The notes under the pieces were generated by a model that searched no databases, was not told the DNA's origin, and saw only the letters and a list, made by a program, of their open reading frames with translations. A stretch of DNA of 64,000 bases from an archaeon (GTDB lineage: Archaea; SpSt-1190; DYHY01): NCBI GenBank assembly GCA_037442745.1, contig JBBIPP010000009.1:1-64000 (forward strand), written 5' to 3'. This document shows, piece by piece, positions 9,928 to 49,360 of this stretch (its first letter is position 1; the number at the start of each line of letters is the position of its first letter). A program made the position numbers and the translations under genes.

Positions 9928-11472
9928 TCACAAAAAGGCGTCGGAATCGTCCCTCCGTTTCCTTGCGCGCTCTTCAAACTCCCTTGCTGCGTCCTCAATC
10001 CCAATTGAATGCCGTGGTTGCGGGCTTTTCCGCCCACGGATTTTGACAAAAGTCGGATAGTTTATCGCTTCCCCGACAATCAGGGCTTCCCCGACGCGAA
10101 GACTCGTAATGCTGGAAAGAGTGTCTGAGCTTATTCCTTCTGAAGACTGGCCAATGTGGTCGAGATCGTTTGGGTTTGTCACCCTCATTATTATGTGGGT
10201 GTTGCACTGGGAGAGTATTGTTGTCGAGAGCCGGACTGGCCTTTGGGAAATCAAGACAAGGGATGCGCAGAATTTCCTTCCCTCCCGGGCAACTGTTTCC
10301 AAAATTCCCCTGGCAATCGCGTTCTCCCTCGCCTCTCCTTGGGGGACGAAATTGTGGGCTTCCTCCACAATCTCCGCATAGGGAGCGATCGAGTTCCTCT
10401 TCCGGAGCTCAAAGAGCTTTCTTGAGACATAGTTCACTACAATCTGCTTTGTATAAGAGCTGGTAATCCCCGAGAGGTCGAAAATTGTCATTGCGCCCGG
10501 GGAGACAATTTCCTCGACCGGGGGGAAGGGAGTTGGGGAAAATATTCTTGAAGAGTTGAGGTCCTCTAGCCAGCCAATTGCGACCGATTTGGAGTCCTTT
10601 TTTGCATCCTCAATTGCCCCGATTTCCCTGACAATGTCTGAAATTTCGTATGTCTTTCCAGTCTCCCGCATCTCCTTTCGAAGGGCCTGGATTGCTGAAT
10701 GAATCAGGCGTCTTTGGGAAGCCGAAATGCTCGGGTTGAAGGTGCAAATCTCGCGGGCGGAGAGATCGGGAACCGGAATCTTGAATTTCGTGCAATCTAC
10801 TAGTATTGTCCTCCCTTGGTAGAGGCCGGGATCTGAAAAGCTCGAGTATTCCCCGTGGACGTCAATAACAACTATTGCAATGCGCCCCTGCTCTTTCTTC
10901 CGGTCAAGGAGCTCCTCAAGAAGAACGCTTGTGAGGTGGCTCTTCCCAGCTCCGCTCATTGCTAGGATTGCGAGGTGCTTTTGGAGGAGGCGGGTCGGGT
11001 TAACCTTTGCCTCAATTTTGTGGTGCTCGACTGCTCCCAATGCAAGGCCCGTTCCGTCGAACCCGAGGAATTTCGAGAGCTTGTCCGGGTCAATTTCGGA
11101 AACTGTCGAACCAGGAGAGACGGGATAAGTTGAGCGGACAACCCGTCCTTCTTTTGAGAATACGCCTAGGACCCTGGCGTCTGCAACAAGGAATTCCCAG
11201 GCATCGATTGGGAAGAGGCTTGAAAGCTCCGTCTCCTTTCCGTATTCCCTGACAGTCTCCGCCCGCGCGAAATACTTGTTCGTCTTCCTTATTGTCTCAA
11301 TTCTCGCGACAACGAGGCCGTCCTCGAACTCGACTGAGACGAACTGGTCCTTTCTTGCTGGAGCGCTCTCCGCCTGCTCAATAACGAAGGAGAATCCTTC
11401 GGGAGATGGGCCCTCTAGGGTTGATATTATTTTTCCAATTGGTTTTTTGGGGATTTGGTGTGAGTCTGCCAT
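9928..11472 (-). CDS. herA: HerA helicase/ATPase
   Basis: N-terminal HAS-barrel, HLAILAMSGAGKS Walker A, DVHGEY, EEAHNF, AREGRKF and SQRP; nurA lies upstream on the same strand. Confidence 0.93.
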   Translation of the reverse strand: MADSHQIPKKPIGKIISTLEGPSPEGFSFVIEQAESAPARKDQFVSVEFEDGLVVARIETIRKTNKYFARAETVREYGKETELSSLFPIDAWEFLVADARVLGVFSKEGRVVRSTYPVSPGSTVSEIDPDKLSKFLGFDGTGLALGAVEHHKIEAKVNPTRLLQKHLAILAMSGAGKSHLTSVLLEELLDRKKEQGRIAIVVIDVHGEYSSFSDPGLYQGRTILVDCTKFKIPVPDLSAREICTFNPSISASQRRLIHSAIQALRKEMRETGKTYEISDIVREIGAIEDAKKDSKSVAIGWLEDLNSSRIFSPTPFPPVEEIVSPGAMTIFDLSGITSSYTKQIVVNYVSRKLFELRKRNSIAPYAEIVEEAHNFVPQGEARENAIARGILETVAREGRKFCASLVLISQRPVRLSTTILSQCNTHIIMRVTNPNDLDHIGQSSEGISSDTLSSITSLRVGEALIVGEAINYPTFVKIRGRKSPQPRHSIGIEDAAREFEERARKRRDDSDAFL

Positions 11473-11534
11473 TTTCTGTCTTTTTCTCTGAGAAACTGAA
11501 CAGGAGAATAAAAGGGTTTTCGGGGACGAGTTTC

Positions 11535-11574
11535 CGGTATTCGGCGGGGACGGATATTAATTCGCCGAATACCG
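11535..11574 (-). promoter_or_regulatory. Palindromic operator upstream of herA
   Basis: CGGTATTCGGCG-N16-CGCCGAATACCG with perfect 12-bp arms; the same 10-bp arms and spacing occur upstream of radA. Putative TATA TTTTATT (minus strand) at 11507-11513. Confidence 0.7.
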
Positions 11575-11667
11575 ACCTCGCGTCGTACCTCGCTCGGCCG
11601 GTTGGGGCGGGGACGGATATTAATTCGCCGAATACCGACCTCGCGTCGTACCTCGCTCGGCCGGTTG
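11543..11667. repeat. Tandem duplication, 2 x 62 bp (period 63)
   Basis: GGCGGGGACGGATATTAATTCGCCGAATACCGACCTCGCGTCGTACCTCGCTCGGCCGGTTG at 11543-11604 and 11606-11667. Confidence 0.95.
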
Positions 11668-11743: not shown

Positions 11744-12279
11744 ATGGAAATAAATCAAGTAAGAACTGCTATAAAAATAGGTGATTTTATTCTAAGAAAG
11801 AATCATCGAAACAAAATAGATTTGATTTATTAGATTCTATTCCAAAAGAAACCTTGGTGGCGGACCTCCCTAGAGTTTATCTTTTTGTTGTTGACGGTGT
11901 TATTAAAAAAATTGGTGGTTCTTCAGGAAAAGGAGGAATAAAAAATACTATGAATTTTTACGTCTCCGCTATGACTGGCAGTCCGGGTGTTCCTAGATTC
12001 GTTCTGCATTTACTTATAGAAAAGGAACTAAAGAAAGATAGAAACGTGGAACTGTATATGATAACATCGCCTACTTGCCTCGCTGAAGTAAATGGATTAT
12101 TTTCATCAAAAAAGGTTGAAATTGCGAGCTTCAAGGAGATGGAGGATTTCTGCAAAGCTGATTATTTCTCCGTAGAGAAAAGGTTTCCTGATTGGAACTT
12201 TCAGGAGAACCATACGCCGTATCCACAGAAGGAAGCAAAACTTCACAACGAATATCACAAAAAAAGATTAAAAAAATAA
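11744..12279 (+). pseudogene. Putative GIY-YIG type II restriction endonuclease, frameshifted
   Basis: ATG at 11744 reads MEINQVRTAIKIGDF...IDLIY*, and a second frame continues LDSIPKETLVADLPRVYLFVVDGVIKKIGGS. This VY...KIG pattern is a GIY-YIG variant like that of Hpy188I. About 178 aa combined; convergent with a methyltransferase; AT-rich. Confidence 0.6.
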
Positions 12280-12283
12280 ATGG

Positions 12284-13268
12284 CTATACTCTAGGCGGGC
12301 TGAAAATAAGGATTTCATGAGAATCTTTGATATTCGTTTTCGTCCCGTTCATAAGGCGATTTTTACCTATTCGTGTCTCGCCTTGTCCCATTGTATATTG
12401 CCAAGAGGGAAAATGTTGTTCGAACTCTTGATAGTATTCGCGTATTGTTGGGCAGTTATTGTATGAAAGAATGAACCCGCCTTTATGTTTCTTTAATAAA
12501 TCCCGCAAAACTTCGTGAGGAAACCCTTTGTGATGAACGGGGATGTTTCTCATAGGATATATTCCTTTAAACATCTTTGAATCTGGACCGATATAATAAG
12601 GGGGATCCAAATACATAAAATCTGTTGGATATTTTTTAAGTACATTTTGGAAATCGGCACATTCAACTGTGAGCTTTCCCGGACGGAAAGCTCTTATTTT
12701 TTCTAACATTTTTCGGTATCTATCTTCGTTCAAGTATATTTCAGAACTCCAACCCATAAATCCGGGGCCGTATGACAAGTTGAAATTATACACAAAATAT
12801 GTGGCTAGTTTCAATTGGTCAAGGGTTGTTTCTTTCCTCCAAACTCTGTTGAGTGTTTTTCTTATGCGGTCAAACTCTTCCTTATTCGGCTTTAGTTTTT
12901 TGAGTTCGTGATAAAGTAGGTCGGGGGCGTCTATTTGAAATTTCCAATAATTGCACAAAATATCAAATATATCGAAGCCCTTAACCTAAGCCCGGGTGTT
13001 TACTTATTGCTATTTCAACAGAGCCTACGCCAAAAAATGGGGATATTACTCTCTTTGTATCAATAGGCAGTAGTTCTAGTATGTGCCCTACTGAAAGGCT
13101 TTTCCCGCCCGCATATCTTATTGTAGATTCCGCCACCCGTTTGTATCGGTTCATGCTATCGGGATTTTTGCTTGAAATATTTCTAAGAAATATTCGTTTC
13201 TTCTCGGCTAAGCTCACAAACTCATCTGGCGTAGTTTCGTATTCGGACATGAATGTTGTCAGTTCCAT
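12284..13268 (-). pseudogene. Dam/D12-class N6-adenine DNA methyltransferase, frameshifted near 12985
   Basis: The N-terminal part has RYAGGKS and SPFFGVGSVE. The second frame continues VKGFDIFDILCNYW, YLDPPYY and FILSYN. Confidence 0.88.
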
Positions 13269-13416: not shown

Positions 13417-14505
13417 CTAGAACGGTCTCTGCTTCCTTCTGAGAGCCATTGAAAGGGGCGTTGCTCCGGCCCTATCCGAAATCTGCTGGAAAATCAATTC
13501 AATATCCTCCTCAGAGAGCTTTGCCCGGGCGTCCGCCTCTATTATGACTGTGGGGAGCCCGTAGCTCCTGTTGAAGCGGGATGTGTTGTATATTGCGGAA
13601 GCTATTCTGTCAGCAACCTCGCCAACCTTTTCGGGTTCTGATAGGAAATCTATTTTCAGGGGGCGGTCGAACTCTGCCGAGCGAAGGTATATTGTGTAAA
13701 CCATTCTCGCGAATTCTCCGAGGCCCCCTTCCCCCAACTGGGACTTGCCCGGATGGGAGAATGCGCATGTCCGCTCTCCCGGGCTCAGGGAATCGAAAAG
13801 AATAACCGAGTCCCTGCAGTTCGTTTTCGGGGCTCCGGGAGAATCAGAAACTGAGCTGTAGAACCTGTTCTCCCTCGAATCCTCGACAACTCCCGAGAGG
13901 AAAATTCCGTTCTTCAAGCAGTATGAATAGAGTGACTTGTAGGCTGAGAGCATTTCCAGATAGTCAGCCCTAAGGGAGCTTCCTTCGCCCGCCTTGTTCG
14001 CCGGATGGGGGAGAATTGACCCGTGCATAACAAGGTGCTCCGGGTTTAGCGCTTTTGCGGAATCGAGCGCAATCTCAAACTCCTTTTTCGGGCGGATAAT
14101 GTTCACTGCAAGGAGAAAATCCATTTCAGACTCGGCATCGACAATTGTCTTTGGTTCTGGCGCGGGGTTCTTGGAAGGGAAATAGGAATGGTTCTTTAGC
14201 TTTCCCCGGGAATATTCAAAGAGAACGCCGACCGCTCGTATAAGTATCAGGTCAACCCCGTGATACTGCTCCTTTAGGAGACCGCCGTCAACTCCGAGTA
14301 TTTTGAAATCAGGCTCGTCTTTTCCGACTTTGATGAACAGGGGTTTCTCCGGTTCCGCCGACTCTTTGAGAACCTCGCCCGAGCGTTTTTCTGAAATCTC
14401 CCTCAGGAATTCGGAGGCAGCCCTCCTTTCAATTTCCTTGTTCCGGATTCCGTCAGCAGCTGATAGGACTGCTGTTGAGAGGTTCTTTGCGCCTGAAGGG
14501 GACAT
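13417..14505 (-). CDS. nurA: NurA 5'-3' nuclease
   Basis: ILGVDGG, MHGS, GVVEDS and YGLPTVIIEADARAK. Start placed at ATG 14505, downstream of TATTTAA at 14529-14535. Confidence 0.9.
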   Translation of the reverse strand: MSPSGAKNLSTAVLSAADGIRNKEIERRAASEFLREISEKRSGEVLKESAEPEKPLFIKVGKDEPDFKILGVDGGLLKEQYHGVDLILIRAVGVLFEYSRGKLKNHSYFPSKNPAPEPKTIVDAESEMDFLLAVNIIRPKKEFEIALDSAKALNPEHLVMHGSILPHPANKAGEGSSLRADYLEMLSAYKSLYSYCLKNGIFLSGVVEDSRENRFYSSVSDSPGAPKTNCRDSVILFDSLSPGERTCAFSHPGKSQLGEGGLGEFARMVYTIYLRSAEFDRPLKIDFLSEPEKVGEVADRIASAIYNTSRFNRSYGLPTVIIEADARAKLSEEDIELIFQQISDRAGATPLSMALRRKQRPF

Positions 14506-14547
14506 TGTTTTCCGTCTCTTGCGTTCGGTTAAATAGGCTTTTCCTGA

Positions 14548-14564
14548 ACTTTCCGATATTCGGC
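14548..14564 (-). promoter_or_regulatory. Single copy of the herA/radA operator arm upstream of nurA
   Basis: Plus-strand ACTTTCCGATATTCGGC has one mismatch to CCGGTATTCGGC and lies 20 nt from the TATA edge. Confidence 0.6.
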
Positions 14565-28196: not shown

Positions 28197-28290
28197 TTGG
28201 GTCAGTTTTCCTCATTTCGGGTTTTTAGAGTGTTTGGATGGGCTTGCCGGTATTGGTAGTCTGGAGGCGGGGGGCCGGAAAGCTTATAAG

Positions 28291-28320: not shown

Positions 28321-28707
28321 ATGAATAAGGATTCGGGCGATGCCGGCCTCTCAAGGCATATGGCAAAGGGAATGCTGAAGCTATTCATACTCTTCTCAAT
28401 TGCCAAATCCCCGAGCCACGGCTATTCTCTCTTGAAGGAATTCAGGAACAAGTCCAAATCCTGCCCGGCGGATGCGAGGAAAGACATCGGAATCGGGCAA
28501 TTCTATTCTATTATTGACGTACTAGAAGAGTCGGGCCTTGTGAAATCGTCCATTGAGGGCAGGACGGGGCGCCAGAGGAAAATGCTCTCAATAACGCCCA
28601 AGGGCAGGCAAGTTGTCCGAAAAGCGAAAAGGCATTTCGCATCCGCAATCGGGATGTTCAAAGAAGTTGTTCCAGAACTCTTCGGGAATCCCGGGAGGGC
28701 CCCTTGA
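28321..28707 (+). CDS. PadR-family transcriptional regulator
   Basis: SHGYSL...G.FY....LEESGLV...RK...ITPKG. Confidence 0.88.
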   Translation: MNKDSGDAGLSRHMAKGMLKLFILFSIAKSPSHGYSLLKEFRNKSKSCPADARKDIGIGQFYSIIDVLEESGLVKSSIEGRTGRQRKMLSITPKGRQVVRKAKRHFASAIGMFKEVVPELFGNPGRAP

Positions 28708-37478: not shown

Positions 37479-38558
37479 CTATTCCTCCTCAATATCCTCT
37501 ATCCCTTTTTCAGTGACCTGGAAGACTGCTTCCCCTTCCGGGAGGTCTGGAGAGTCTATAAGTTTCGCAACCCTCTTTGTTCCCTTTGATTTGCGGAGAA
37601 ACATCCGGTATGTTGCTGCATGGGCAAGGACGTTTCCCCCAATTGCCTCAACCGTTGGGCCCCAGAAAGCGTCTGGCTTGGCCGAAACCTGGTTCGTAAT
37701 ATAGACAATAAGATTGTAGACGTCCGCCAATCGTTGAAGCCTGTGGAGGTGGCGGTTGAGTTTCTGCTGGCGATCAGCCAAGGTGCCTCTTCCCATAAAT
37801 TCCGCTCTGAAATGGCTCGTTATTGAGTCAACTACAATTAGCCTTATTTTCTTTCCTCTATTAATCATCTCCTCAATCTGGTCAACGAGGAGCATCTGGT
37901 GGTCGCTGTTATATGCTCGGGCAATTATTATTTTTGAGAGGATCTCGTCTTGGGAGATTCCCTGGGCCTCTGCGAGCTGGATAATTCTCTCAGGACGGAA
38001 AGTGTTTTCAGTGTCAATGAATGCGACAGAGCCGTCCAACCCCCCCTTTTCAACCGGAAGGGTTGTGTTCACTGCCAATTGAAACCCAAGCTGGGATTTT
38101 CCAGAGCCGAATGCCGCAAACGACTCGGTTATTGCCTGGGTCTGCACGCCACCCCCGAGAAGATCGTCAAGCGTCTTTGACCCGGTTTTCACTCTGCCGA
38201 CTTTTTTCCTCTTTTCAAGGAGCTGGCTTGCTGGCTCGAATCCTATTTCGAGATGTTCCCTCGCCACATTGATTATTTTCGCGCAGGTTGCTTCCCCTAT
38301 TTCAGTAATTGCCGCTATTTCCGCGGGGGACGCTGCCGCAACTGCAAGCATGTCAATATATCCGGCAGCGGCAAGCTTTTCCGCTGTCTTTGACCCGACT
38401 CCGGGGAGGTCTTCAACTGAAGTTATTTTCTCCTCTTTGCCCTTTTTCTTTGCCCTGGGGGATTCCTCTTCTGTTGGCTGAGCGGGCGTTTCCTCAACTG
38501 CAGGGGAATTTTCTATTTCAGTATCTTTGTTTTCAGCTGCCGATTTTTTCGTTGCCAT
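37479..38558 (-). CDS. radA: DNA repair and recombination protein RadA
   Basis: DLPGVG HhH, GFEPA polymerisation motif, [19 protein letters not shown] and [11 protein letters not shown]. Confidence 0.98.
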
Positions 38559-38583: not shown

Positions 38584-38609
38584 CTCTGTCTCTATTTATA
38601 GAGACAGAG
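38584..38609 (-). promoter_or_regulatory. radA TATA box embedded in a perfect palindrome
   Basis: CTCTGTCTCTAT-TT-ATAGAGACAGAG; the minus strand reads TATAAATA at 38600-38593. Confidence 0.6.
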
Positions 38610-38620
38610 AGTAACTTACC

Positions 38621-38658
38621 GGTATTCGGCAGGGGTTGCTTTTATTTCGCCGAATACC
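38621..38658 (-). promoter_or_regulatory. Palindromic operator upstream of radA
   Basis: GGTATTCGGC-N18-GCCGAATACC, with arms and spacing identical to the herA site. Confidence 0.7.
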
Positions 38659-39293
38659 AGTTTCTCCTGCGACAGTCAAATTTTGTCGCAAAACGCTCTG
38701 GGAAGGTTCTTCGTACTCGGGAGCTGCCGAGCATCACTAGGCCAGTTCCTGACTGAAATTGATTTTAAAAAACTCAGACAATTAGCCAAAAATTTTCTTT
38801 CTGATTAAAAACCTTGAATATTTTCCCGGCGCTCGCATTTTCCTGAAAAACGCCTATTTGACAAGGAGAAGCTGGCCTTTTGGAATATTCCGAATAATGG
38901 GGAAGAGTTTCTGGCTTTACGTTTCTAGGGAGCGGGAATTTTCCTTTGAAGCCCCGGTTATCAGGACAATCTCCTTTCGCTCGAGCTTTCCTGTGGGAAG
39001 GGGGTGAAGCTGTCTGCTTTGTATCTGGCAGGAAAAGAAGGGGAACTGCACGTGTCTTTCCTCGAGAGCAACTATTGCCGGGGCGAACGCAAATATTTGG
39101 CGGACATTGTTTTGTTCCTTGTTGAGAATGTTCCGCCTTCTTTAGGACGGCAAAATGATTATTGCTTTTCTCTTTTGAGTTTCGTCCGCAGGGGAATTTC
39201 CGAAAACGCTAATTATTCGATTGGGAGCTTTTCTTTTTGGGCTGGAAAATTCCTGTTAGATATTCGGAGGCTTTCGGAAATGTGGCAATCGCC

Positions 39294-40316
39294 CTATGCT
39301 TCTTGTTCCAATTCCTTTGTGAGTTTTTCAATCTCCCGTGAAACGTTCACTTCTGAGACGGAATTAACTACTAGTTCCATGCGATCGAAAACGGAGTTGT
39401 ATCTTGCCCGCCCGGAGAATACCCTCTCCTGACCTATCAATTTCGTTGTCGCGGCATAGATTACCATCGGGTTTCCGGCGAGGTCTGAGAGCTTTTCAGC
39501 GTCTTCCGTCTTCATTCCAAGAAGGCTTTCGGCCGCCTGCTTGAAAAGAGTTGCCCGAATTGTTCCGGAGCCGTCGTCAATGAGAATGTTCAGTATCAGG
39601 GCGCGCTTTGTTTCTGTATTGTCGTGCTCGGCGCAGGTGTTAATTGACCTTCCGCACTCTTTGCAGGTTTCGTAGAAGGGGCTTCTTGTGTCGAAGAATT
39701 TCATTACATTCGCCCGGATAATTACTGGCGAGGTCTCGTTCTCTGTTAGGGAGCTGATTTCCTTCTCCTTTCCGAAAATCGGAAGGGAGCCGGCTCCCTT
39801 TGCACCGACTTCCGGAAGGGTTTTCCCCTCGCCTTCGGGGTTGAGTAGTAGCCTTGTCCTGTTCGATGCGTGGATTTCCGGGCGGCCCTCCCGGTCTGTC
39901 TTTACATATGCGTTCGATATTTGCAGTATGTCCCCGACTTGGGCGGTTTCTATGAAATTTGCAAGAACTCCCCAGAGAACTAGGCGCGTTGTCCCTGTCT
40001 CGTCAAGAATTAGGAGGTTTGCAACTTGCCCTTTCCTTCCGCCCTTGTCGAATTCTCGCTTTTCGTAGACCCGTAGAACGCGGGCTACAAGATTAACCGG
40101 GCTACCCGGCTTCAAATCCTCTATTTTGCCAACTGATTTCAGGGACGGAAGAGTCTGAATCCCGAGTTCGTTCGCAATAATATGGGCTGCTCCCAAGTCT
40201 GATACTAGGCCTGCGAGCTCTTTTTTCTTCCCGTCAATCAGGTTCATTATCTCCTCTCTTGGGAGCTGGGAATCCTCTACGAGCTTGTTCACAATTGAAT
40301 CAAAGTCTGCCTGCAT
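39294..40316 (-). CDS. rpa: Replication protein A (OB folds plus Zn-finger-like motif)
   Basis: DUF2240-like N-terminus (LAGLVSDLGAAHIIANELG), ILDETG..RLVLW, CKEC...C.EH and DDGSGTIRATLF. Confidence 0.9.
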   Translation of the reverse strand: MQADFDSIVNKLVEDSQLPREEIMNLIDGKKKELAGLVSDLGAAHIIANELGIQTLPSLKSVGKIEDLKPGSPVNLVARVLRVYEKREFDKGGRKGQVANLLILDETGTTRLVLWGVLANFIETAQVGDILQISNAYVKTDREGRPEIHASNRTRLLLNPEGEGKTLPEVGAKGAGSLPIFGKEKEISSLTENETSPVIIRANVMKFFDTRSPFYETCKECGRSINTCAEHDNTETKRALILNILIDDGSGTIRATLFKQAAESLLGMKTEDAEKLSDLAGNPMVIYAATTKLIGQERVFSGRARYNSVFDRMELVVNSVSEVNVSREIEKLTKELEQEA

Positions 40317-40430
40317 TGCCGGACGAGGGCTCGTCCGGTTTATAGGGTTTTTGAGGGCGTTTCCGGTGAATTGGGAGCAATTTGGCTAAAAAGGGCAAAA
40401 TTAAATAATAGGGTTTCCTTTTTCTCATTC

Positions 40431-40676
40431 GTGGCAGAACATTCCCCTTCGAAAAAGCGCTCTCCTGCCGAAGGAAGCGCCCTTCCCCGCGCAGGGGTTG
40501 TTAGGCTTGTGAGAAAGGGGGGGAAATTCAGGTTTGAAAAGAATGCGATTTCGGAGCTCCATTCTTTCCTTGAAGCAACGGCATCAGACATTGCAAAGCG
40601 GTCAGGAAGGCTTGCGTCTCTTGCAAAGCGGAAAACAATAACAAAGGAGGATGTTGGCTTTGCCTCGACAGAATAG
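40431..40676 (+). CDS. Archaeal histone with N-terminal extension
   Basis: LPRAGVVRL...R...LE...IA...AKRKTITKEDV aligns to HMfB without gaps. GTG 40431 lies about 25 nt after TTAAATA (40401). Confidence 0.85.
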   Translation: MAEHSPSKKRSPAEGSALPRAGVVRLVRKGGKFRFEKNAISELHSFLEATASDIAKRSGRLASLAKRKTITKEDVGFASTE

Positions 40677-41724
40677 GGCTTCCTCGCCAACCAAAGACAA
40701 GAAGAAGCTGATTGTCATTTGCATTGATAGGGATGATGATCTTGGGCGGAAAACCCGGTTCGACGGGCCGATTATAGGGGAAAAAAATGTTCTTGAAGCC
40801 GCAGTTGCCCTTTCACTTGCAGACCCTGCAGACAATGATTCTAACACAATGTTTGAGGCAATTAAGGTCGCGCGGGAGGTGTCAGGAGAAGTTGCAGTAA
40901 TTACAGGGAGCGTCAAAGTGGGCGTCGCGTCCGACAGGATTGTTGCCGAACAGCTCGAAAGCGTCCTTGACCGGGGGAAATACTCGGAGACAATTCTTGT
41001 GACTGACGGGGCGGATGACGAGCAGATTCTTCCGCTAATTCAATCTAGGACGAAAATCAGCGGAATACGCAGGCTTGTAATAAAACAGGCGGAAAGGCTT
41101 GAGAACACCTATTATACGGCAATTGACTGGTTGAAGAAAATTGCAAAAGACCCGGAAATGGCAAGGCTTGTCCTCGGGGTTCCCGGGATTGCTGCTGTAA
41201 TGCTCGCCCTTTTCGGAATGTCCGGATGGCGGATAATTTTCGGGGTTGTCGGGAGCTATCTTCTCCTGCGGGGATTCCGGCTTGAAAGCGTTCTCACAGG
41301 CTTTTTCACCGATTTTCGAACATCTTTCAAGTTCATGCGGTTCTCTTTCCTCACATATATTGTCTCAATTGTAATGATTGGGGTTGCAATATACAGGGGC
41401 CTTGCCACAATGGCCGGAAGCACGAGCATTGTGAATACGATTTTCTCCTTCCTGCACGGCTCGCTTTTCTTCCTAATGATGGCGGCAATCTCAATTGTTG
41501 TCGGGAAAACAATTGATTCCTTTCCAAATTTCTCCCTAATGCTCCACTATATCAATACAGGCGTAATTGCAGGCGTCTCAATCTGGGTTCTCAAGAGCGC
41601 ATCTAGCTACTTTTTGGAACCCACTATAGGGTTAACAAACCTTGTTACCTCTGTAATTATAGGATTAATATTCACCTTTTTAATGGAAATAATAAAAAAT
41701 GTTGCTATAAAGTGGTATTTTTAG
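40651..41724 (+). CDS. DUF373 family membrane protein
   Basis: LIVICIDRDDDLGRK, DPADNDSN, LVTDGADDE and KQAERLENTYY, followed by several TM segments. Confidence 0.9.
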   Translation: MLALPRQNRASSPTKDKKKLIVICIDRDDDLGRKTRFDGPIIGEKNVLEAAVALSLADPADNDSNTMFEAIKVAREVSGEVAVITGSVKVGVASDRIVAEQLESVLDRGKYSETILVTDGADDEQILPLIQSRTKISGIRRLVIKQAERLENTYYTAIDWLKKIAKDPEMARLVLGVPGIAAVMLALFGMSGWRIIFGVVGSYLLLRGFRLESVLTGFFTDFRTSFKFMRFSFLTYIVSIVMIGVAIYRGLATMAGSTSIVNTIFSFLHGSLFFLMMAAISIVVGKTIDSFPNFSLMLHYINTGVIAGVSIWVLKSASSYFLEPTIGLTNLVTSVIIGLIFTFLMEIIKNVAIKWYF

Positions 41725-41832
41725 TTCAATTGTTGCTTGAAAAAAATACTAACTGAATGGTTGCATCAAAACAGATATATATAAAAGATATTTATCAACG
41801 CTCTAATTGACAAAAAGGAGTGTTTATTGACA

Positions 41833-42114
41833 ATGCCCGGAATTGCGAAAAAAAACCTTGAAATAATGTTCCTTCATGACAAGCCAGCAAGAATAATTAC
41901 GAAAATGAAGGGCCAAAAGAAGTATGCGTCAGTTCTTGCAAAGGAGGTTGATTGCACATATTCCCATTGCGTCAGGATTCTCCAGGATATGAAGAAATTG
42001 GGGCTTGTGGAGTTCGAGAAAAAGGGAAGAATAAAGCACGTAATTCTTACTAAAAACGGGGAAGAAATTGCCCATTCAATGGAAGGTGTCTACATGGCTT
42101 TTGACAAAATTTAA
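41833..42114 (+). CDS. Winged-helix (MarR-like) DNA-binding protein
   Basis: KPA...YASVLAKEVDCTYSH...GLV.FEKKGRIK...LTKNG; AAGGAG RBS upstream. Confidence 0.85.
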   Translation: MPGIAKKNLEIMFLHDKPARIITKMKGQKKYASVLAKEVDCTYSHCVRILQDMKKLGLVEFEKKGRIKHVILTKNGEEIAHSMEGVYMAFDKI

Positions 42115-42119
42115 CCTTT

Positions 42120-42545
42120 TCAGGATGTTTTGAGCTTATTCTGAAGAGCTTCAGCATACTCCAGCAATCTATTGAAAATATCATCAATAACATGTTCTTT
42201 CAGCGCGTATTTAATTGAATAAACCAAATTTCCGCCTTCCGCTATGCTGTATTTTGTCTTTTTATGATCTAATAGCTTTCTTTCTTCTAACCGTCTTAAA
42301 TGTCGTCTTATTCCTGAGAGGGCTAATTTCCTTTCAAGCAATTCAAAGACCTGTTCAGCATCTAAAGACTCCTTCGAGTCGAAAACCGTTTGAAAAACTT
42401 CAACAATTCCAGTTCGATTATCTCCCGGGTTAATTAACCCTAAAGATATGCAAAATCTCCTTATTAGCGTTTTTTTGTCAATATTTTCGGGTCTTTCAAA
42501 TTTTCTAATTGTTATTTCCGCTAAAGGAAGGTCTGTTGTTGACAT
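42120..42545 (-). CDS. Conserved archaeal winged-helix protein
   Basis: PLAEITIRKFERP, FCISLGLINPGD.R and SGIRRHLRRL. Confidence 0.75.
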   Translation of the reverse strand: MSTTDLPLAEITIRKFERPENIDKKTLIRRFCISLGLINPGDNRTGIVEVFQTVFDSKESLDAEQVFELLERKLALSGIRRHLRRLEERKLLDHKKTKYSIAEGGNLVYSIKYALKEHVIDDIFNRLLEYAEALQNKLKTS

Positions 42546-42810
42546 TATAAATTATAATAAACTAATATATTTAATTATTTCTATGGCTAGATTTTTTTCA
42601 GCAAATTGCATATCAGAAAGAGAAACTATTACCGGCAATGTTGCGTTAACAGATAAATAGAGTTGTCTCAATTAGATGGGACAATGTATTCAAAAACCAG
42701 CTCTTTTAGTTGTTTAGGGGAAGTTTGGCATATAAGGGGGGTTGAACTGCAGAAATATATATTTATCTCAAAAATTCGGAAAAATAGGGAAAAGGAATTG
42801 GGGGGTTTCA

Positions 42811-43167
42811 ATGGATCCTGTTGATACCTCTCAATTTGATGAGATTGTGAAATCTGATGAAACTTTCGAGCTGGTCAAAGGAATTATCAAGGATTTTGTT
42901 GCAAAAAGCCAGCTTGAAATTGCAATTGGGATTGTTCTTGAGCTCAAAGAATCTGGTTGTTTTTCCAGATCAAGCAGGCAAAAATTCGCGTCAGAACTAA
43001 AGGTTCCGGGCCCAAGAGCAACTGTTTATCGGGTAGTCTCCGTCTTGGAAGATCTCGGAATACTTGACAGAGAGAGCAAATATTCAGGTTATTTCCTAAG
43101 CCATAATTTCTCGAACAGGTTAGAATCTTGTGCAGAAAAGTGGAGAAGATTCAGCAAAGGAACATAA
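42811..43167 (+). CDS. Hypothetical winged-helix protein
   Basis: RATVYRVVSVLEDLGIL...YFLS..FSNRL. Confidence 0.7.
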   Translation: MDPVDTSQFDEIVKSDETFELVKGIIKDFVAKSQLEIAIGIVLELKESGCFSRSSRQKFASELKVPGPRATVYRVVSVLEDLGILDRESKYSGYFLSHNFSNRLESCAEKWRRFSKGT

Positions 43168-43468
43168 ATAAAGAGGTCCTAATGTATTTTTTTGTAGAAT
43201 TTTCGAAAAATAATTCAGGGTTCAACCCGGTTTTGTCAAATAAATAAAGGTTTTCTGAGGATAATAAAATAAATAATTATTATAACTTATAATAAATTAT
43301 TAAAGAACTTTTTAGTATTAAATTTGCATATAATGTATATTATAATATAATGTTTATAATAATTATTTGAAAATAATTAGTTTGTTTTGTAATGTAAAGT
43401 TACCATTTTAAAATAGTTTTTTATTTGAAGAAAACTTTATAACCCCCGCGCCATTAACTTTTTGGAAC

Positions 43469-43541
43469 AGCCCCGTCGTCTAGCGGTCAAGGATATGGGC
43501 CTCTGGAGCCTGGGACAGCAGTTCGAATCTGCTCGGGGCTA
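43469..43541 (+). tRNA. tRNA-Gln (CTG)
   Basis: Archaeal Gln-type acceptor stem AGCCCCG/CGGGGCT, anticodon loop CTCTGGA, T-arm AGCAG-TTCGAAT-CTGCT; CTTTATAA upstream. Confidence 0.95.
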
Positions 43542-44461
43542 CTTGTTCTCCTCAAGTTAAATGGACTTTTGGTTATTTATGCACAAGTTGTCTATTTTAG
43601 GCATATTTGCCTAGCCAGACCAGATTATTTGGGCTTGTTTTCTCCAATTTATTGCCAGCTGTTTTGTATTTTTTCCAATAAATGGACTAAGAAAAGGCTT
43701 TTAGGCAAAAATCTTTTTGTTCAGTTAGTTATTATTGGTTAATTTTCTAATTAATGAAAAAACGAAACTTTTTAACCTTTTGAAGTATTTTTTGAACGTT
43801 ATAAGTGTAAATAAACTACAAAATGGTTTTTTTTAATTATTCTATTGACTAAAATCAGATTAAATTGATTTATAGGCAATTTTGTATATCCAAATAGCGA
43901 AAATGTCAAAATATTGTAAGATAGTTTTAAGAAGTTTTTTACATCCTCTTTTGAATAAATTTTGAGATATTTGTGATCTCTACTTTGCTCAATTAATATC
44001 AGTTCAACTTTAGAAAATCTACATTATTGATATTAATAACCTTATTCATATGAAAAAAATGAAAAAGTATTTATATTTAGCTTTAAAAAAAGTGCATTAA
44101 TGTTAATAACATTATTAAGAGGACTAATATTATTGATATTAATTGTTAATCTGATTATGTCAAAAAATAAAAACTCTAGATCCTCTTTTTACCCTCATTT
44201 GGCCTTAAAAACTAGTTATAATGTAAAAAATGAAGCTAATTGTGAGAGAAATGTTATATACTTGAAGTTGCAATATATTTCAGTGGGAGCGTAATGTTAG
44301 ATATGTGTTACTACCAAAAATTTTATGTAAGGGGAATGTGTGAAGTATTTCATTCTAGTAATTGTTGTTCTTTTTCATTGATTTGATATTGATATCAATG
44401 ATGTTAATGCGGTTAATAAATTAAACATATACTTTTATACTAGTTAAAGAGCCATATTAAT

Positions 44462-47188
44462 GTGTCATTTGAAAATCTTTCAGAAAAAATTCAGAAAATC
44501 CTGGTTAAGAAGGGTTTCTCAAAGCCTACTGAAATACAAAAACGTACTATAAAGTTTATTTTGGATAAAAAGCAGGTTCTTGTGATTTCTGAGACTGGAA
44601 GTGGCAAAACAGAAGCAGTAATGCTCCCTCTGCTTGATTTGGCATTGAAAAGTCCCGAAAAACGAATTTTCTGTATTTACATAACTCCTTTAAAGGCTCT
44701 AAATAGGGACATTTTTGAGCGAGTTCTTTCAATTTCTTCAGAACTCGGGCTTGATGTAGATATCCGACATGGAGATACCAGCTCGCATCAAAGACGCTTG
44801 CAACTTGTGGATCCACCCAATATATTGATAACAACTCCTGAAAGTTTCCAGGGATTCTTAATTGGAAAGAAAATGCGTGAACTTCTCAATAATTTGGAAT
44901 ATATTGTTATTGACGAAATACATGAAATAATAGGGAATAAAAGAGGAGAACAGCTATTATTTGGGTTAGAACGTTTAAAAAACATTATTAAACGAGATTT
45001 CAAGAGAATTGGAATTTCGGCAACTTTAAAAGATCCAAAAAGCATTTCTGTCTCTTTAAATGGCTCTAATAGGGAAAAACTCAATATAGTATGTGTAGAA
45101 AGTGTCAGAAAACCAAAAATTTCGATTTTTTGGCCTAATGATATTTCTGAAGAGAACGAAAATTCTGATTGGTTTTCCAATACTTTAAGGGCAATAAAAG
45201 AACTTTCAAAGGAAAAAGATGGAACTATTGTTTTTGTGAACACCAGAAATAATGCAGAAATACTTGGAGCCAAGTTGAAGGAAGGGTCATCTCGTTTTGA
45301 TGTACATCATGGCTCTCTATCAAAGGAATCCCGCTTAAATGCTGAAAAAGGGCTAAAAAATAGGGATATTGATTCAATTGTCGCAACTTCTTCCCTTGCT
45401 TTGGGAATTGATATTGGTCATGTTAGCCAAATAATACAAATAAACTCTCCACGAAGAATTGAGGCATTTATACAGAGAATTGGCAGGGCAGGGCACAGCT
45501 TACTTAAAGAGTCAAAAGGAACAATTATTGTAAGCGATGAAGATGATGCTTTAGAAGCTTGCGCAATTGCCAAACTTACACTTCTCCAAGTTCTTGAAGA
45601 AAAGCCGTTAATGGAAGGTTCCCTTGATGTTTTGGCAAATCAAATTGTTGCTATGGGATTTGAAGGGACTTGTACAAGGGATTCCGCCTTTGAAATTGCA
45701 AAAAGAGTTGTTCCCTTTTCCAAGATATCCCGGGTTAAATTCGATGATGTATTTAACCTTCTTTTGAACCTTAGATTAATAAAAATAACTGAAAATGGGA
45801 CCTATTCAATAAAAAAAGCTGCTTTTGGTTATTTTTTCTCAAATATGTCAATGATTAAAGATAGAAAGAAGTTGGAAGTAGTCAAATTCAGCAGTAGAGA
45901 AAGAATTGCCGATATTGACGAAGAATTTGCTACTGAAATTGATATTAGTTCAACTTTTGTTTGCAGAGGAAGTTATTGGCGGGTTATTTCAAAGAAAGGC
46001 CCAAAAATCTTTGTTGAGGAAGCTATTGCTGCTGAAAATGTGCCGGAGTGGGCAGGCGAGTTACTGCCTGTCGACTATATTGTTGCAAGACAAGTAAATC
46101 TAATGCGGTCCTATTGGCCAACAGTTAAAGAAGACTATTCCGTTCTTATTGACCGCTTTTCTATTGAAAAAATAACTGCTGATTATTCAAAATGCGGGCG
46201 ATTTCCAGAAAATGAGATTGGGATTGAGCTTGGACCGGATTTCTTTGTTCTTCGCAGTTTTTTCGGAAATAAAGTAAATGAAACTCTTGGACTACTTTTA
46301 TCGTCTTATTTTTCCCTTAAGGTTGGAGAATCAGTTGGTTTTAGGGCGGATGCGTATAGAATACTAATAAAATTGCCCGGAAAAGTCAATGAAGTTGAAA
46401 TATTTGACTTTTTCAAGGGGATAAATGAAAATTATCTTGAGAAAACCCTCAGAACAGTTATCCGAAACAGCACACAGTTCAAACAGAAATTCGTTCATAT
46501 TGCCAAGAAATTCGGAGTAGTTTCGGCTGACGCCGTTTTTTCAAAAATTTCGATACAAAAGCTTGTTGATGTTTATGAGGGGACTCCTGTTTTTGAAGAA
46601 ACTCTGGCTGAATATTTCTTTGAAAAAATGGACTTGAATAAAGCTAAAGTAATTATCAGAGATATTCGGGAGAAGAGAATTTCTCTGAAGACATATTCGG
46701 AAATTACACAGTTCTCAAAGCGCTTTCTTGAAAAATATTCTCCGGAACTTGTTTTTTCGGGTTTGCCTCTTGCCAAAATACACAAAATAGTCTCCAAACG
46801 CCTTGAAGAGAAAAAAATAACTCTTGCGTGCGCAACTTGCCTTGCCTGGCTCGGGCAATTCTCCGTCAAGAACGTTGATTTCAAATGCCCGTCCTGCGGA
46901 TCTGGAATGCTTGGAATACTGTCAAAAGAAAACCGTTCTTTGTTGTCCAAAAAGGATCTTAAAAGACAGGAACGAGTTGTTATTGAAAAATTCAAGAAAA
47001 CGGCGAACCTTTATCTGACATATGGAAATCGCGCGTTTTTTGTCCTTTCTGGCAATGGAATTGGACCTGAAATCGGCGGACGAATACTTGGCAAAACAGC
47101 TCTTTTGGGGAATTCTGAAGTTGTAAATGAGATAATTAATGCTGAAAAGAACTTTGCAAGAACGCGTATTTTCTGGGACAAGGTGTAG
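44462..47188 (+). CDS. lhr: Lhr-family ATP-dependent helicase with C-terminal Zn finger
   Basis: ETGSGKT, ITPLKALNRD, DEIH, SAT, HHGSLS, QRIGRAGH and CATC..CPSC. Confidence 0.95.
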   Translation: MSFENLSEKIQKILVKKGFSKPTEIQKRTIKFILDKKQVLVISETGSGKTEAVMLPLLDLALKSPEKRIFCIYITPLKALNRDIFERVLSISSELGLDVDIRHGDTSSHQRRLQLVDPPNILITTPESFQGFLIGKKMRELLNNLEYIVIDEIHEIIGNKRGEQLLFGLERLKNIIKRDFKRIGISATLKDPKSISVSLNGSNREKLNIVCVESVRKPKISIFWPNDISEENENSDWFSNTLRAIKELSKEKDGTIVFVNTRNNAEILGAKLKEGSSRFDVHHGSLSKESRLNAEKGLKNRDIDSIVATSSLALGIDIGHVSQIIQINSPRRIEAFIQRIGRAGHSLLKESKGTIIVSDEDDALEACAIAKLTLLQVLEEKPLMEGSLDVLANQIVAMGFEGTCTRDSAFEIAKRVVPFSKISRVKFDDVFNLLLNLRLIKITENGTYSIKKAAFGYFFSNMSMIKDRKKLEVVKFSSRERIADIDEEFATEIDISSTFVCRGSYWRVISKKGPKIFVEEAIAAENVPEWAGELLPVDYIVARQVNLMRSYWPTVKEDYSVLIDRFSIEKITADYSKCGRFPENEIGIELGPDFFVLRSFFGNKVNETLGLLLSSYFSLKVGESVGFRADAYRILIKLPGKVNEVEIFDFFKGINENYLEKTLRTVIRNSTQFKQKFVHIAKKFGVVSADAVFSKISIQKLVDVYEGTPVFEETLAEYFFEKMDLNKAKVIIRDIREKRISLKTYSEITQFSKRFLEKYSPELVFSGLPLAKIHKIVSKRLEEKKITLACATCLAWLGQFSVKNVDFKCPSCGSGMLGILSKENRSLLSKKDLKRQERVVIEKFKKTANLYLTYGNRAFFVLSGNGIGPEIGGRILGKTALLGNSEVVNEIINAEKNFARTRIFWDKV

Positions 47189-47386
47189 AGGATTGCTTAA
47201 AAACATGTAGTTTTTGGATAAAAATCAAAAAATTGTTGAAAAACAAGTCAGTATTTGAAGCTATTTTATTAAAAAGGGGTTGTTTTCAGATATTTTTGTT
47301 TGTTGAAAGAAGAAAAAATGTTTTTTAGGAAGTTGATTTTAATTATGCGTTTTTAATTTCTTATAATGGAATACGTTGTTTCCCTA

Positions 47387-47839
47387 TTATTCGAACTCTT
47401 CAAGAATAAGGGAAGTTATTGTCCTAGAAATTGAGTTAATGCGCCGAAGTCCTATTATGAACTCGTTCAGTTCATAGGTGCTTTTGAAGTTCGCTTTGAA
47501 TACAATGTCTGCTTCTCCTGTGACTGAAATGAAGCATTCTATTTTCCCGAGCTTCCTTACCTTCTCGGCAATTGCCCTATGGATTGTTTTTATGCTCGAA
47601 CTTTCCCGGGAGTTTTCGTTGTTCAGATTAATTGAAATAAGGGCTTTAATCGGATAACCGAGTTTTTTCCTGTCTATTTTCGCGCCGTATTTTTCCACAA
47701 TTCCCTCTTTTTTCAGTCGGGCGACAATGTTGTGAACTGTTGTTGTCGGGAGCTTTAGAAGTTCTCCGATTTCCCGGTTTGTCAGGGAAGAGTCCTTCTC
47801 GAGAATCTCAGCAACTGCTTCCTTTGCCCATTTGTGCAT
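47387..47839 (-). CDS. Lrp/AsnC-family transcriptional regulator
   Basis: N-terminal HTH (TTVHN.V.RLKKEGIV), ID.KKLG linker and RAM domain (VTGEAD). Confidence 0.9.
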   Translation of the reverse strand: MHKWAKEAVAEILEKDSSLTNREIGELLKLPTTTVHNIVARLKKEGIVEKYGAKIDRKKLGYPIKALISINLNNENSRESSSIKTIHRAIAEKVRKLGKIECFISVTGEADIVFKANFKSTYELNEFIIGLRRINSISRTITSLILEEFE

Positions 47840-47944
47840 CTGGTTGTCAAAAATATACAACTGGATGAGATTTTAACTTTTGCTGTTTCGGGAGGCCAGA
47901 TTGGGTTCCAGTGCCAAATCGCATGGCCCTTTGGGTCCCTGTAA

Positions 47945-49360
47945 TTGCCTGAAAAATTATTTAATTGCCCTTCATTGCACTTGCCTGTGAAGTTCGGGCT
48001 TCCGGTATGGCACGGGAACATTGAATCAATTGAGAGCGAAATAAGGAGGGCTTATTTGCTCGGGTTCGATTATGTCGAAATATCCCTCGATTATCCCTGG
48101 CCAGAGACACTTTCCAAAAGCAGGATAAAAAAAATTGTCGGACTTGCCCGTGATTTGGGAATAGGAATTGCTTTCCATGCCCCCCCAGAAGGGGTTGATA
48201 TTGGGAGCCCGTTTCCGGAAACCAGGAAAAATTCTGTGAAATTCTTGCTTTTCCTTGTCAAATGGTCAAAGCAGTTTGGCCCCCTCTACCTGAATTTCCA
48301 CGGGAGCGCAGGGGAGCAATTCAGCCCCTCTGATGACGACCTTTTCCTCGGGGCAGTCCTTTCCGCAACAAGGAGGAGCGCGAGGGAAATTTCCTCCGGC
48401 GCAAGAAAGCTCAGAGTTCCGGTCACTTTCGAGAACACTCCGGACCCAATTTTCGGGATTTCGAGAAACATTGACTTTATTCTCGGGTCAGGGGTCAGCC
48501 TGTGCCTTGACATTGGGCATTCCGAAATAATTAATTGCGTTTCGAAGAAGGTTCTCGGAAAGGAGGATCGCCAATACAAGAAATGGGCAAAACTTTCAGG
48601 GAAACGCATCCTGACAATACATCTTCACAAGGTGAAGCGGGGAAGCGACCATTATCCGTTCTCAAAAAAGGACAGGGAGCTGGGGAAAGGGTATGGGGCT
48701 CTTGCCAGGAACTCGCGCGCAAAGTTCACGACAATTGAGATAATGAAAGAGGAACATGGAGCTGTCCACAAAGTGTCTGACCGGACAATGAAATCCTGCC
48801 TTGAGGCTGCGCGCTCATGGACGGGAGAAGAGGGGGAAGACCCCGGGAAGAAGTTTGTTTATTCGGTAAAAAGAGAGCACCTTTCGTTCCTCAGGTCATC
48901 TGGGCGCGGAAAAATCGTTTCGGGGGAGATAAGGGAAGCGGACCTTCCGAAAGGTCGCCGGATAATTGTTGTTGGAGACGAATGCTCCGCCAAAATCCCA
49001 GTATCTTCTGTCTTTAGCCTTTTTTATGATGGGAAAACCCGGAGGCGCAAGGTTTCTTCCAAGAAGCTCGAGAGGCTTTCCTCGTTTCGCCTGCCGGAAA
49101 TTAGGGTTGAAAACCCGAGGGGAAAAATAACAAAGGAGCTATGGAATGCCTCAAAAACCGCGCTTGCCAAAAGAACGAAGGTTTTCGTCAAGGGTGAAGA
49201 GGATTTGGCAACTCTTGCAATAATTGCCATTGCCCCTTTGGGAACTGTTGTTGTGTATGGGATTCCCCTAAAGGGCTCTTGCATACTGACAATAGGAAAG
49301 GAAGAACGGGAGCGGGCCCGGGAACTTATTGGAGAGGGCGTTGATTATGCAATCAGCTGA
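47945..49360 (+). CDS. Fusion of a xylose-isomerase/AP-endonuclease-2-like TIM barrel and DUF359 (GTP-dependent dephospho-CoA kinase family)
   Basis: N-terminal part: GFDYVEI, FHAP, FEN, CLDIGH, IHLH, DH. C-terminal part: VVGD, DGKTRR, VENPRGKIT, VKGEEDL, VVYGIP. Start position uncertain. Confidence 0.8.
   Translation: MPEKLFNCPSLHLPVKFGLPVWHGNIESIESEIRRAYLLGFDYVEISLDYPWPETLSKSRIKKIVGLARDLGIGIAFHAPPEGVDIGSPFPETRKNSVKFLLFLVKWSKQFGPLYLNFHGSAGEQFSPSDDDLFLGAVLSATRRSAREISSGARKLRVPVTFENTPDPIFGISRNIDFILGSGVSLCLDIGHSEIINCVSKKVLGKEDRQYKKWAKLSGKRILTIHLHKVKRGSDHYPFSKKDRELGKGYGALARNSRAKFTTIEIMKEEHGAVHKVSDRTMKSCLEAARSWTGEEGEDPGKKFVYSVKREHLSFLRSSGRGKIVSGEIREADLPKGRRIIVVGDECSAKIPVSSVFSLFYDGKTRRRKVSSKKLERLSSFRLPEIRVENPRGKITKELWNASKTALAKRTKVFVKGEEDLATLAIIAIAPLGTVVVYGIPLKGSCILTIGKEERERARELIGEGVDYAIS

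Follow-up and report, generated by a model that had tools for sequence, protein, structure and literature searches.

A long-spacer palindrome upstream of radA and herA as a putative regulatory site of recombination and repair genes in an archaeon

Why should two recombination genes of one archaeon stand behind the same inverted repeat? In the 64,000-nt stretch of archaeal DNA analysed here (contig JBBIPP010000009.1 of assembly GCA_037442745.1; hereafter the window), a palindrome with two 10-nt arms and an 18-nt spacer lies upstream of radA at positions 38621-38658 and recurs upstream of herA. Our analysis of its sequence, position and orientation, and of its conservation in relatives, showed that this palindrome is real and non-random, and that it is conserved as a palindrome within the genus and as a half site within the family. 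We believe, with moderate confidence, that it is the upstream binding site of a putative regulator of a recombination and nucleic-acid-repair regulon, probably an activating one, and that it may represent the strongest form of an upstream site common to a few repair-gene promoters.

The window is contig C9 of its source genome (G000; 1.136 Mb in 20 contigs, 94.5% complete). We compared it with a sister species (G001; RadA 84% and HerA 81% identical to those of G000), a member of a different genus of the same family (G003), a metagenome contig with a RadA 96% identical to that of G000 (L040), and the genomes G002 (84% complete, without a detectable radA) and G004. Chance expectation in the window was taken from 100 dinucleotide-preserving shuffles, and the genome-wide control for the extended arm and for half-site words was the same word read backwards. 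Protein families were assigned using Pfam (for one Zn-ribbon protein also NCBIfam and the ESM Atlas), and RNAs were sought using the Rfam 15 covariance models.

The palindrome and its promoter module

The first-pass annotation of the window had described two 38-mers with identical arms and an 18-nt spacing, placed 64 nt (herA) and 63 nt (radA) from their start codons. Both statements hold: GGTATTCGGC-N18-GCCGAATACC has exactly two matches in the window, at 11536-11573 and 38621-38658, its 10-nt arms and spacing are the same at both, and the distances to the ATGs are confirmed by subtraction. When the spacer was allowed to vary from 14 to 22 nt, there were again two matches, against none in the shuffles, and the 10-mer arm with at most one mismatch was found 11 times where 2.85 were expected. 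No third exact palindrome was seen in the 1.136 Mb of the genome, and among 61 archaeal genomes searched with the same range of spacers only the window's own contained it (0 of the 60 others). The exact 10-mer arm occurs 13 times on both strands of G000, and seven of these copies lie within four promoter modules: three at herA, two at radA, and one each at C5:71278 and C3:41791. The features of the two sites are as follows.

38621..38658, minus strand: radA palindrome (distal arm, 18-nt spacer, proximal arm), on the gene strand GGTATTCGGC-N18-GCCGAATACC; pairing 10/10; kept at the orthologous place in G001 and L040
38616..38630, minus strand: extended promoter-proximal arm of radA, GCCGAATACCGGTAA, one of the five genomic copies of GCCGAATAYCGGNAA
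38584..38609, no strand assigned: radA core promoter, a perfect 12+2+12 palindrome centred on the TATA-like box TATAAATA (38593-38600, gene strand)
37479..38558, minus strand: radA, 359 aa, Rad51/RadA recombinase (PF08423 Rad51, E 2.7e-88)
11536..11573, minus strand: herA palindrome, whose arms extend to 12 nt (11535-11546 / 11563-11574)
11531..11545, minus strand: extended promoter-proximal arm of herA, GCCGAATACCGGAAA, a copy of GCCGAATAYCGGNAA
11506..11513, minus strand: herA TATA-like box TTTTATTC (gene strand), assigned by eye, 22 nt after the proximal arm and 41 nt before the ATG
9928..11472, minus strand: herA, 514 aa (PF01935 HerA central domain, HerA/DUF87, E 7.9e-32)
11543..11667, no strand assigned: perfect tandem duplication at herA, 62 nt with a period of 63 (copies 11543-11604 / 11606-11667)

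The spacer, the distal arm and the next 31 nt are all included in the tandem duplication, so that herA has a third copy of the arm at 11627-11636. At radA the TATA-like box follows the proximal arm by 20 nt and precedes the ATG by 42 nt. The palindrome centred on this box is unchanged in L040, has one change in G001 and is not kept in G003, and it may be a second control element of radA.

The promoter-proximal arm can be extended to GCCGAATAYCGGNAA, which occurs three times in the window (0 expected) and five times in the genome (0 for the backwards control). All five copies have the same orientation, facing a downstream gene or a conserved candidate RNA, and their targets are radA; herA; nurA; a gene row for a Zn-ribbon protein, a membrane protein, archease and RtcB; and a putative non-coding RNA (ncRNA) before the gene of the CCA-adding enzyme (cca). 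From the end of the arm to the TATA-like box there are 20 nt at radA, 22 at herA, 19 at nurA, 22 at the ncRNA and 24 at the Zn-ribbon gene (range 19-24). Many copies at unrelated places, which the first-pass annotation had named as the observation that would speak against a regulatory site, were not seen, as all five extended arms are in promoter position. The palindrome belongs to a promoter module of ~48 nt. Read on the gene strand, the order common to four G000 promoters is RRTATTyGGC, 18 nt often starting with GAAATAAT, then GCCGAATAYCGGAAA, 19 to 24 nt, a TATA-like box and the ATG; nurA has the proximal arm and the part downstream of it only. The distal arm pairs fully at radA and herA, whereas 7 of 10 positions pair at the C5 site and 6 of 10 at the C3 site. 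A smaller dyad within the proximal arm, CCG-N5-CGG, had also been pointed out; it is real in five of five G000 sites but kept in only one of the five proximal arms of the sister species, which makes it probably incidental.

The assignment of the TATA-like boxes is supported by the genome's own promoter geometry. Over 1021 crudely called genes of G000, TATA-like words peak 25-34 nt before the ATG, with 73 and 145 matches in two bins and at most 45 in any other, and from this peak mostly leaderless mRNAs are suggested. The nurA, hef and Zn-ribbon genes fit this spacing; the radA and herA boxes lie 41-42 nt before the ATG. The TATA-like word of herA is found as the identical word at the identical place in the herA promoters of G001 and G003.

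Other sites of this kind are listed here.

14550..14564, minus strand: nurA half site GCCGAATATCGGAAA, without a distal arm; TATA-like TATTTAAC at 14528-14535, ATG at 14505
13417..14505, minus strand: nurA (PF09376 NurA, E 5.8e-10)
28244..28254, minus strand: weak hef half site AATACCGGCAA, upstream of a TATA-like word and of hef (25950-28196)
40359..40370, minus strand: doubtful rpa half site TTCACCGGAAAC, 14 nt before TATAAAC and upstream of rpa (39294-40316), indistinguishable from background CCGGAAA
G000 contig C3, 41786: extended arm upstream of a row of genes for a 119-aa four-cysteine Zn-ribbon protein, a ~200-aa membrane protein, archease and RtcB
G000 contig C5, 71273: site before a conserved non-coding stretch of ~100 nt, ~250 nt before cca

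Half sites had been proposed earlier at nurA, hef and rpa. The one at nurA is as described, 19 nt before its TATA-like box, and the one at hef gains support from conservation, as TACCGGMAA is kept in the hef promoters of all three genomes G000, G001 and G003; its distance from the TATA-like box is 16-17 nt in the first two and ~20 nt in G003. At rpa a word is present, but the case is weak, because CACCGGAAAC owes most of its resemblance to CCGGAAA, a heptamer commoner than any other in the genome; the corresponding words are TACAGGAAAC in G001 and AACCGGAAAC in G003. The mre11-rad50 promoter has no site. Half sites also stand before further G000 genes, namely an Orc1/Cdc6 paralogue, a 245-aa open reading frame (ORF) and a 169-aa protein with a weak winged-helix/Panacea-like match, and, in G001 only, before a 153-aa ORF. 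We treat these promoters outside the core set as unproven and possible chance matches, because the half-site word AATACCGGMAR is not enriched. The 245-aa ORF, with GAATACCGGAAA 57 nt before its ATG, lies between an integrase and a C5 cytosine methylase (L029, G000:C12:41000-48500). This island looks like an integrated element with a restriction-modification pair; it may borrow the host's half site, or the match may be due to chance.

Behind the C5 site, a putative RNA of ~100 nt would start ~30 nt after the TATA box (L002 3125-3240, G000:C5, minus strand) and ends at a T-run upstream of cca. G001 shares its 5' part and one hairpin, and its status as an ncRNA rests on this conservation between G000 and G001 only, as its fold energy is not better than that of shuffles (z -0.22). 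Among the window and the four loci searched with Rfam 15, only tRNAs reached the gathering score, and around the C5 site nothing meaningful appeared at E<=1, where one miRNA match had E 0.45.

The surroundings of radA raise a different possibility. The gap between rpa and radA (38659-39293) is ~640 nt long without a convincing ORF; in G001 a 233-aa ORF of no known family lies between the two genes, and we considered a trace of it here, but G000 has no remnant. Adjoining the radA palindrome is a hairpin-rich element of 79 nt, which is 78% identical to an element at G000:C5:71353-71430. The A+T-rich part of the spacer could be the TATA box of a divergent small RNA, with the arms flanking that promoter, so that the palindrome would mainly control a divergent transcript. 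Read on the opposite strand, four of the five G000 modules do have an A+T-rich stretch near ATATTATTTC in the spacer. On that side of the radA and C5 sites comes the 79-nt element, which has two or three hairpins and a T-run, and the rpa-radA gap is without a convincing ORF, as noted. Yet the A+T-rich word is absent from three of five G001 spacers, that of radA included, the 79-nt element occurs at only two of five G000 sites and at a different distance from the palindrome in G001 and L040, and no Rfam family matched it. We consider a bidirectional promoter very unlikely.

Two further observations concern other parts of the window. Between nurA and herA there is a gap of ~1.9 kb, in which (window 11854-13268) lie a 141-aa ORF without a family and the two halves of a broken-up D12 adenine methyltransferase, one ORF for the N-terminal part at 12981-13268 and another for the C-terminal part at 12284-12958. 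Because herA directly follows a conserved ORF in G001-G004 (nurA in G001 and G003), the gap looks like an insertion with a broken methylase. Positions 40001-48000 have a low G+C content of 0.35-0.39, against ~0.49 elsewhere, and carry a tRNA-Gln (43469-43541) and a large helicase of the Lhr type (44462-47188); this segment may be acquired DNA.

Conservation in relatives and the question of copying

In the sister species, GGTATTCGCA-N18-TGCGAATACC stands at the orthologous place before radA and pairs at 10/10 positions. The arms of the two species agree at 16 of 20 positions and the spacers at 4 of 18, and the rest of the upstream region does not align. G001 has sites at other promoters too. 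At herA an 8/10 palindrome starts 4 nt after the stop codon of nurA, and a further half site lies 22 nt before the TATA box. Two tandem palindromes precede the Zn-ribbon operon, and the ncRNA/cca locus has a perfect palindrome with 12-nt arms. The word CGAATAYCGGNAA has only three copies in G001, one each at radA, at the Zn-ribbon operon and at the ncRNA. On L040, TATTCGGC-N18-GCCGAATACC is kept at radA with an almost identical core promoter, while the modules further upstream differ by large indels.

Outside the genus, it is the half site that is found. All three genomic copies of AATACCGGMAR in G003 lie before radA, nurA(-herA) and the Zn-ribbon operon, the first two 14-16 nt before TATA-like boxes and the third upstream of the operon start, and none of them is part of a palindrome. 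As the backwards control gives four copies in this genome, the count is unremarkable and it is the places that matter. Directly upstream of the G003 nurA half site there are three tandem copies of a 20-nt unit (L074 1430-1497, G003:C9). Nothing convincing was found in G002 or G004, and among seven more distant RadA loci (55-69% identity) none had a palindrome and one (L046) had a similar half site. A scan of the genome_contigs collection with TATTCGGC-N18-GCCGAATAYCGG returned 11 matches. Ten are in bacterial records, in stretches of 62-70% G+C, four of them near-identical to each other, and we read them as chance; the eleventh, on a contig of an archaeal metagenome-assembled genome, appears from its coordinates and sequence to be the G001 C47 site. 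The single match in viral_contigs lies in a G+C-rich stretch and was likewise read as chance.

These comparisons bear on whether the sites were recognized by a protein or simply copied. The first-pass annotation had preferred protein recognition over recent duplication on the grounds that the arms are constant while the spacer drifts. The spacers of radA and herA do differ, but not freely: they are identical at 11 of 18 positions, and a BLAST alignment joins the two sites at 81% over 43 nt. This argument thus fails for G000, where the two sites alone would also allow duplication of the whole module. It is the relatives that support protein recognition, because they keep the arms of radA while the spacer and flanks diverge.

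Duplication and gene conversion of an intergenic module of ~50-130 nt could also have spread the sites without any dedicated regulator, much as in bacterial REP/BIME mosaics. The modules share parts of the spacer and downstream C/T-rich stretches besides the arms, the G001 radA site and the second Zn-ribbon site share a spacer, and herA carries the tandem duplication with a period of 63 nt. Short hairpin-rich modules upstream also recur across loci and genomes in changed order, with large indels even between G000 and L040. A copied cassette would nevertheless sit poorly with only five copies in one orientation, at a fixed distance from the TATA box of functionally related genes, and in G000 none was seen at the 3' end of a gene. 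Because the sites occupy orthologous positions in two species and, as half sites, in different genera, they must be old and have been kept, and at radA the arms were conserved (16/20) where the spacer (4/18) and flanks diverged. We regard copying alone as an unlikely account of the sites.

The putative regulator and its site

Binding of a regulator to the palindrome fits three traits that can be read from the sites: over-representation (two palindromes against 0, five extended arms against 0), a fixed position and orientation (5/5 arms, 19-24 nt upstream of a TATA-like box), and conservation at orthologous promoters amid diverged non-coding DNA in G001, L040 and G003. Protein binding and the sign of regulation are what we infer from these traits, as is a response to DNA damage, for which the target genes are the only ground.

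The invariant part of the site is the promoter-proximal half, GCCGAATAYCGGAAA in the genus and ATACCGGMAR at the family level, always in the same orientation and with 19-24 nt between its end and the TATA box. Within this genus, radA and herA have an inverted copy 18 nt further upstream, which completes the 10-18-10 palindrome; the Zn-ribbon/archease/RtcB operon and the putative ncRNA before cca have this distal copy in degenerate form, and nurA lacks it. Judging from the distances, the proximal arm would occupy about -45 to -65 relative to the transcription start, with the distal arm around -75 to -85. The two arms, 28 bp apart from centre to centre, could be occupied by two DNA-binding units of one dimer or tetramer, or by two cooperating dimers. 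For TrmBL1 of Pyrococcus, binding upstream of the TFB recognition element (BRE) and TATA box activates and binding downstream represses (PMC4706686). By this position rule activation is the likelier sign here, because the site is upstream of BRE/TATA, and the factor most probably helps to recruit TBP and TFB. Two-arm sites would be bound more tightly than half sites, and the distal arm, added in this genus, would raise affinity or cooperativity at radA and herA. Graded regulation by full and half sites, as proposed at first, is plausible.

Several observations weigh against this reading. Membership of the target set varies, as nurA has its site in G000 and G003 and not in G001, and, judged by eye, neither a site nor an ncRNA-like stretch is present upstream of cca in G003, G002 or G004. 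The G000 modules are alike at 76-90% over 36-43 nt, with spacers as similar as noted above, and promoter cassettes of common origin may account for some of this. The heptamer CCGGAAA/TTTCCGG, which includes the outer CGGAAA of the site, is the commonest of G000 (1226 copies against a mean of 138.5), an abundance that is fully explained by lower-order composition (observed/expected 1.04; the genome is rich in GGAAAA/TTTTCC). The AATA prefix of CCGGMAR is not enriched either (14/2635, rank 47 of 256 prefixes). The short half site thus draws its weight from position and orthology, since the word as such shows no enrichment. The arm centres are 28 bp or ~2.7 helical turns apart, which places the arms on different sides of the helix. 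Lastly, the two arms co-vary. Counted by script over 10 palindromes with 10-nt arms, they pair at 87 of 100 positions, against a mean of 76.9 when arms are re-partnered among sites, and only 0.22% of 10000 permutations reach 87. Compensatory pairs occur at positions 1, 2, 9 and 10. This counts against a protein site because a homodimer needs no such pairing, although copied sites inflate the figure. Shared descent may explain part of the co-variation, given that the inner pairs CGCA/TGCG are common to three G001 sites and one spacer to two of them.

Taken at face value, the co-variation would suit a hairpin, in which pairing of the arms in single-stranded DNA or RNA is selected as a binding, processing or stalling signal and the sequence is secondary. 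Half of the ten palindromes are perfect, five of six single-stranded 48-51-mers fold as expected (z -3.1 to -5.6; the Zn-ribbon one does not, z -1.6), and the G001 herA palindrome, so close behind nurA, could sit in the 3' end of the nurA transcript. The other five palindromes are imperfect, though, with 6-9 of 10 pairs and no loss of the proximal arm, and sites with only one half occupy the same promoter position at nurA in G000 and at all G003 sites. The proximal arm is also about twice as constrained as the distal one, with 9 against 17 departures from the consensus per 100 positions. Because the palindrome lies upstream of its own gene's TATA box, it is not in the mRNA of that gene, and no Rfam family matched it. 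A loop of 18 nt disfavours cruciform extrusion in duplex DNA, and templated correction of quasipalindromes could make the arms symmetric without any selection. With a tighter proximal arm and half-only sites, recognition of the half site by a protein fits better than a need for base pairing, and we judge the hairpin to be quite unlikely.

Candidate binders were sought in this genome. At its completeness of 94.5%, G000 yielded no WYL domain. For the Zn-ribbon protein itself, Pfam, NCBIfam and the ESM Atlas gave no usable lead, and the PadR gene divergent from hef (28321-28707) was considered as a candidate, as was a 141-aa winged-helix protein (42120-42545). The second of two Orc1/Cdc6 paralogues (G000:C7:75877-77034) is a candidate binder, no more, and is taken up below.

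Significance and comparison with known systems

The control of recombination and repair genes in archaea outside Sulfolobales is largely unknown. Among titles and the beginnings of abstracts, we found no operator described at radA or herA promoters of Euryarchaeota or DPANN-type archaea. The palindrome offers a DNA site of high information content, a short conserved list of targets and a clear geometry, and these suffice to fish for the regulator by DNA-affinity methods even though the organism is uncultured. That RadA and the HerA-NurA resection machine appear among the targets together with an RNA-ligase operon (RtcB/archease) hints that DNA and RNA repair may be controlled jointly.

Bacterial stress operators are often inverted repeats, such as the LexA SOS box, CIRCE (9-N9-9, bound by HrcA) and the Deinococcus RDRM (bound by DdrO). 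Like the palindrome described here, they stand before recA-type and other repair or stress genes, with full and weaker sites in one regulon. These are, however, repressor operators that overlap the promoter and have short spacers, whereas the palindrome lies upstream of the TATA box with an 18-nt spacer, and here the half site alone is conserved in another genus. Repeats of the REP, BIME and MITE types are similar in being imperfect palindromes with hairpin potential, local tandem duplication and perhaps mosaic flanking modules. Hairpin-rich modules do flank the palindromes in changing order, but in very few copies. We rejected membership in these classes, given five extended arms and two exact palindromes in 1.136 Mb, promoter positions, a single orientation and orthology between species. 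The TrmBL1 site, or Thermococcales glycolytic motif, resembles ours in being an archaeal palindromic site whose position relative to BRE/TATA sets the sign, but its sequence and regulon are unrelated.

The nearest described system is the DNA-damage-responsive element (DDRE) of Sulfolobales, a 5'-ANTTTC-3' hexanucleotide within a 20-bp consensus that is bound by the Orc1/Cdc6 paralogue Orc1-2; it lies 23-55 bp before the ATG, and the four tested Saccharolobus reporters were upsA, upsE, tfb3 and cedA1 (PMC6061795). Two Orc1/Cdc6 paralogues are encoded in each of G000, G001 and G003. One of the G000 genes (G000:C3:71647) has TTCCA-N2-GGAAA repeats resembling origin recognition boxes (ORBs) upstream. 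We considered ORBs for the palindrome too, but it shares only GGAAA with these repeats and sits at repair-gene promoters. In the second gene, AATACCGGAAAG is fused to the gene's own TATA box and followed by an inverted copy in G000, an arrangement kept in G001 and, with one change, in G003. Directly before its ATG lies TATAAATACCGGAAAGG-N5-CCTTTCCGGTA (L031 4030-4075, G000:C7:77030-77075), the first half of which is conserved in G001 and G003. This second, non-origin paralogue could read ATACCGGAAA, repress its own gene and activate a joint DNA and RNA damage regulon, a proposal to which we give only a slim chance. If it were true, self-repression would act through a half site fused to the TATA box and its inverted copy, and the regulon would join radA, nurA-herA and hef to the archease-RtcB operon and the ~100-nt RNA before cca, coupling DNA and RNA repair under one switch. 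The Orc1-2-type damage response, known only from Sulfolobales, would then extend to a small-genome DPANN-like archaeon.

Set against the DDRE, the palindrome is alike in being a short promoter element of damage or repair genes, at a set distance before the start codon, that we read as an activator site. The motif is, however, separated from the ATG by 49-78 nt at herA and radA and by 39-53 nt at nurA, and only its outer TTTC is similar. It is a 10-18-10 inverted repeat or a half site of 10-15 nt, in contrast to a hexanucleotide, and its putative targets are radA, herA/nurA, hef and the RtcB/archease operon. As sequence, architecture, targets and lineage all differ, we do not regard the palindrome as a member of the DDRE family, and see in DDRE the closest described parallel to a site of its kind.

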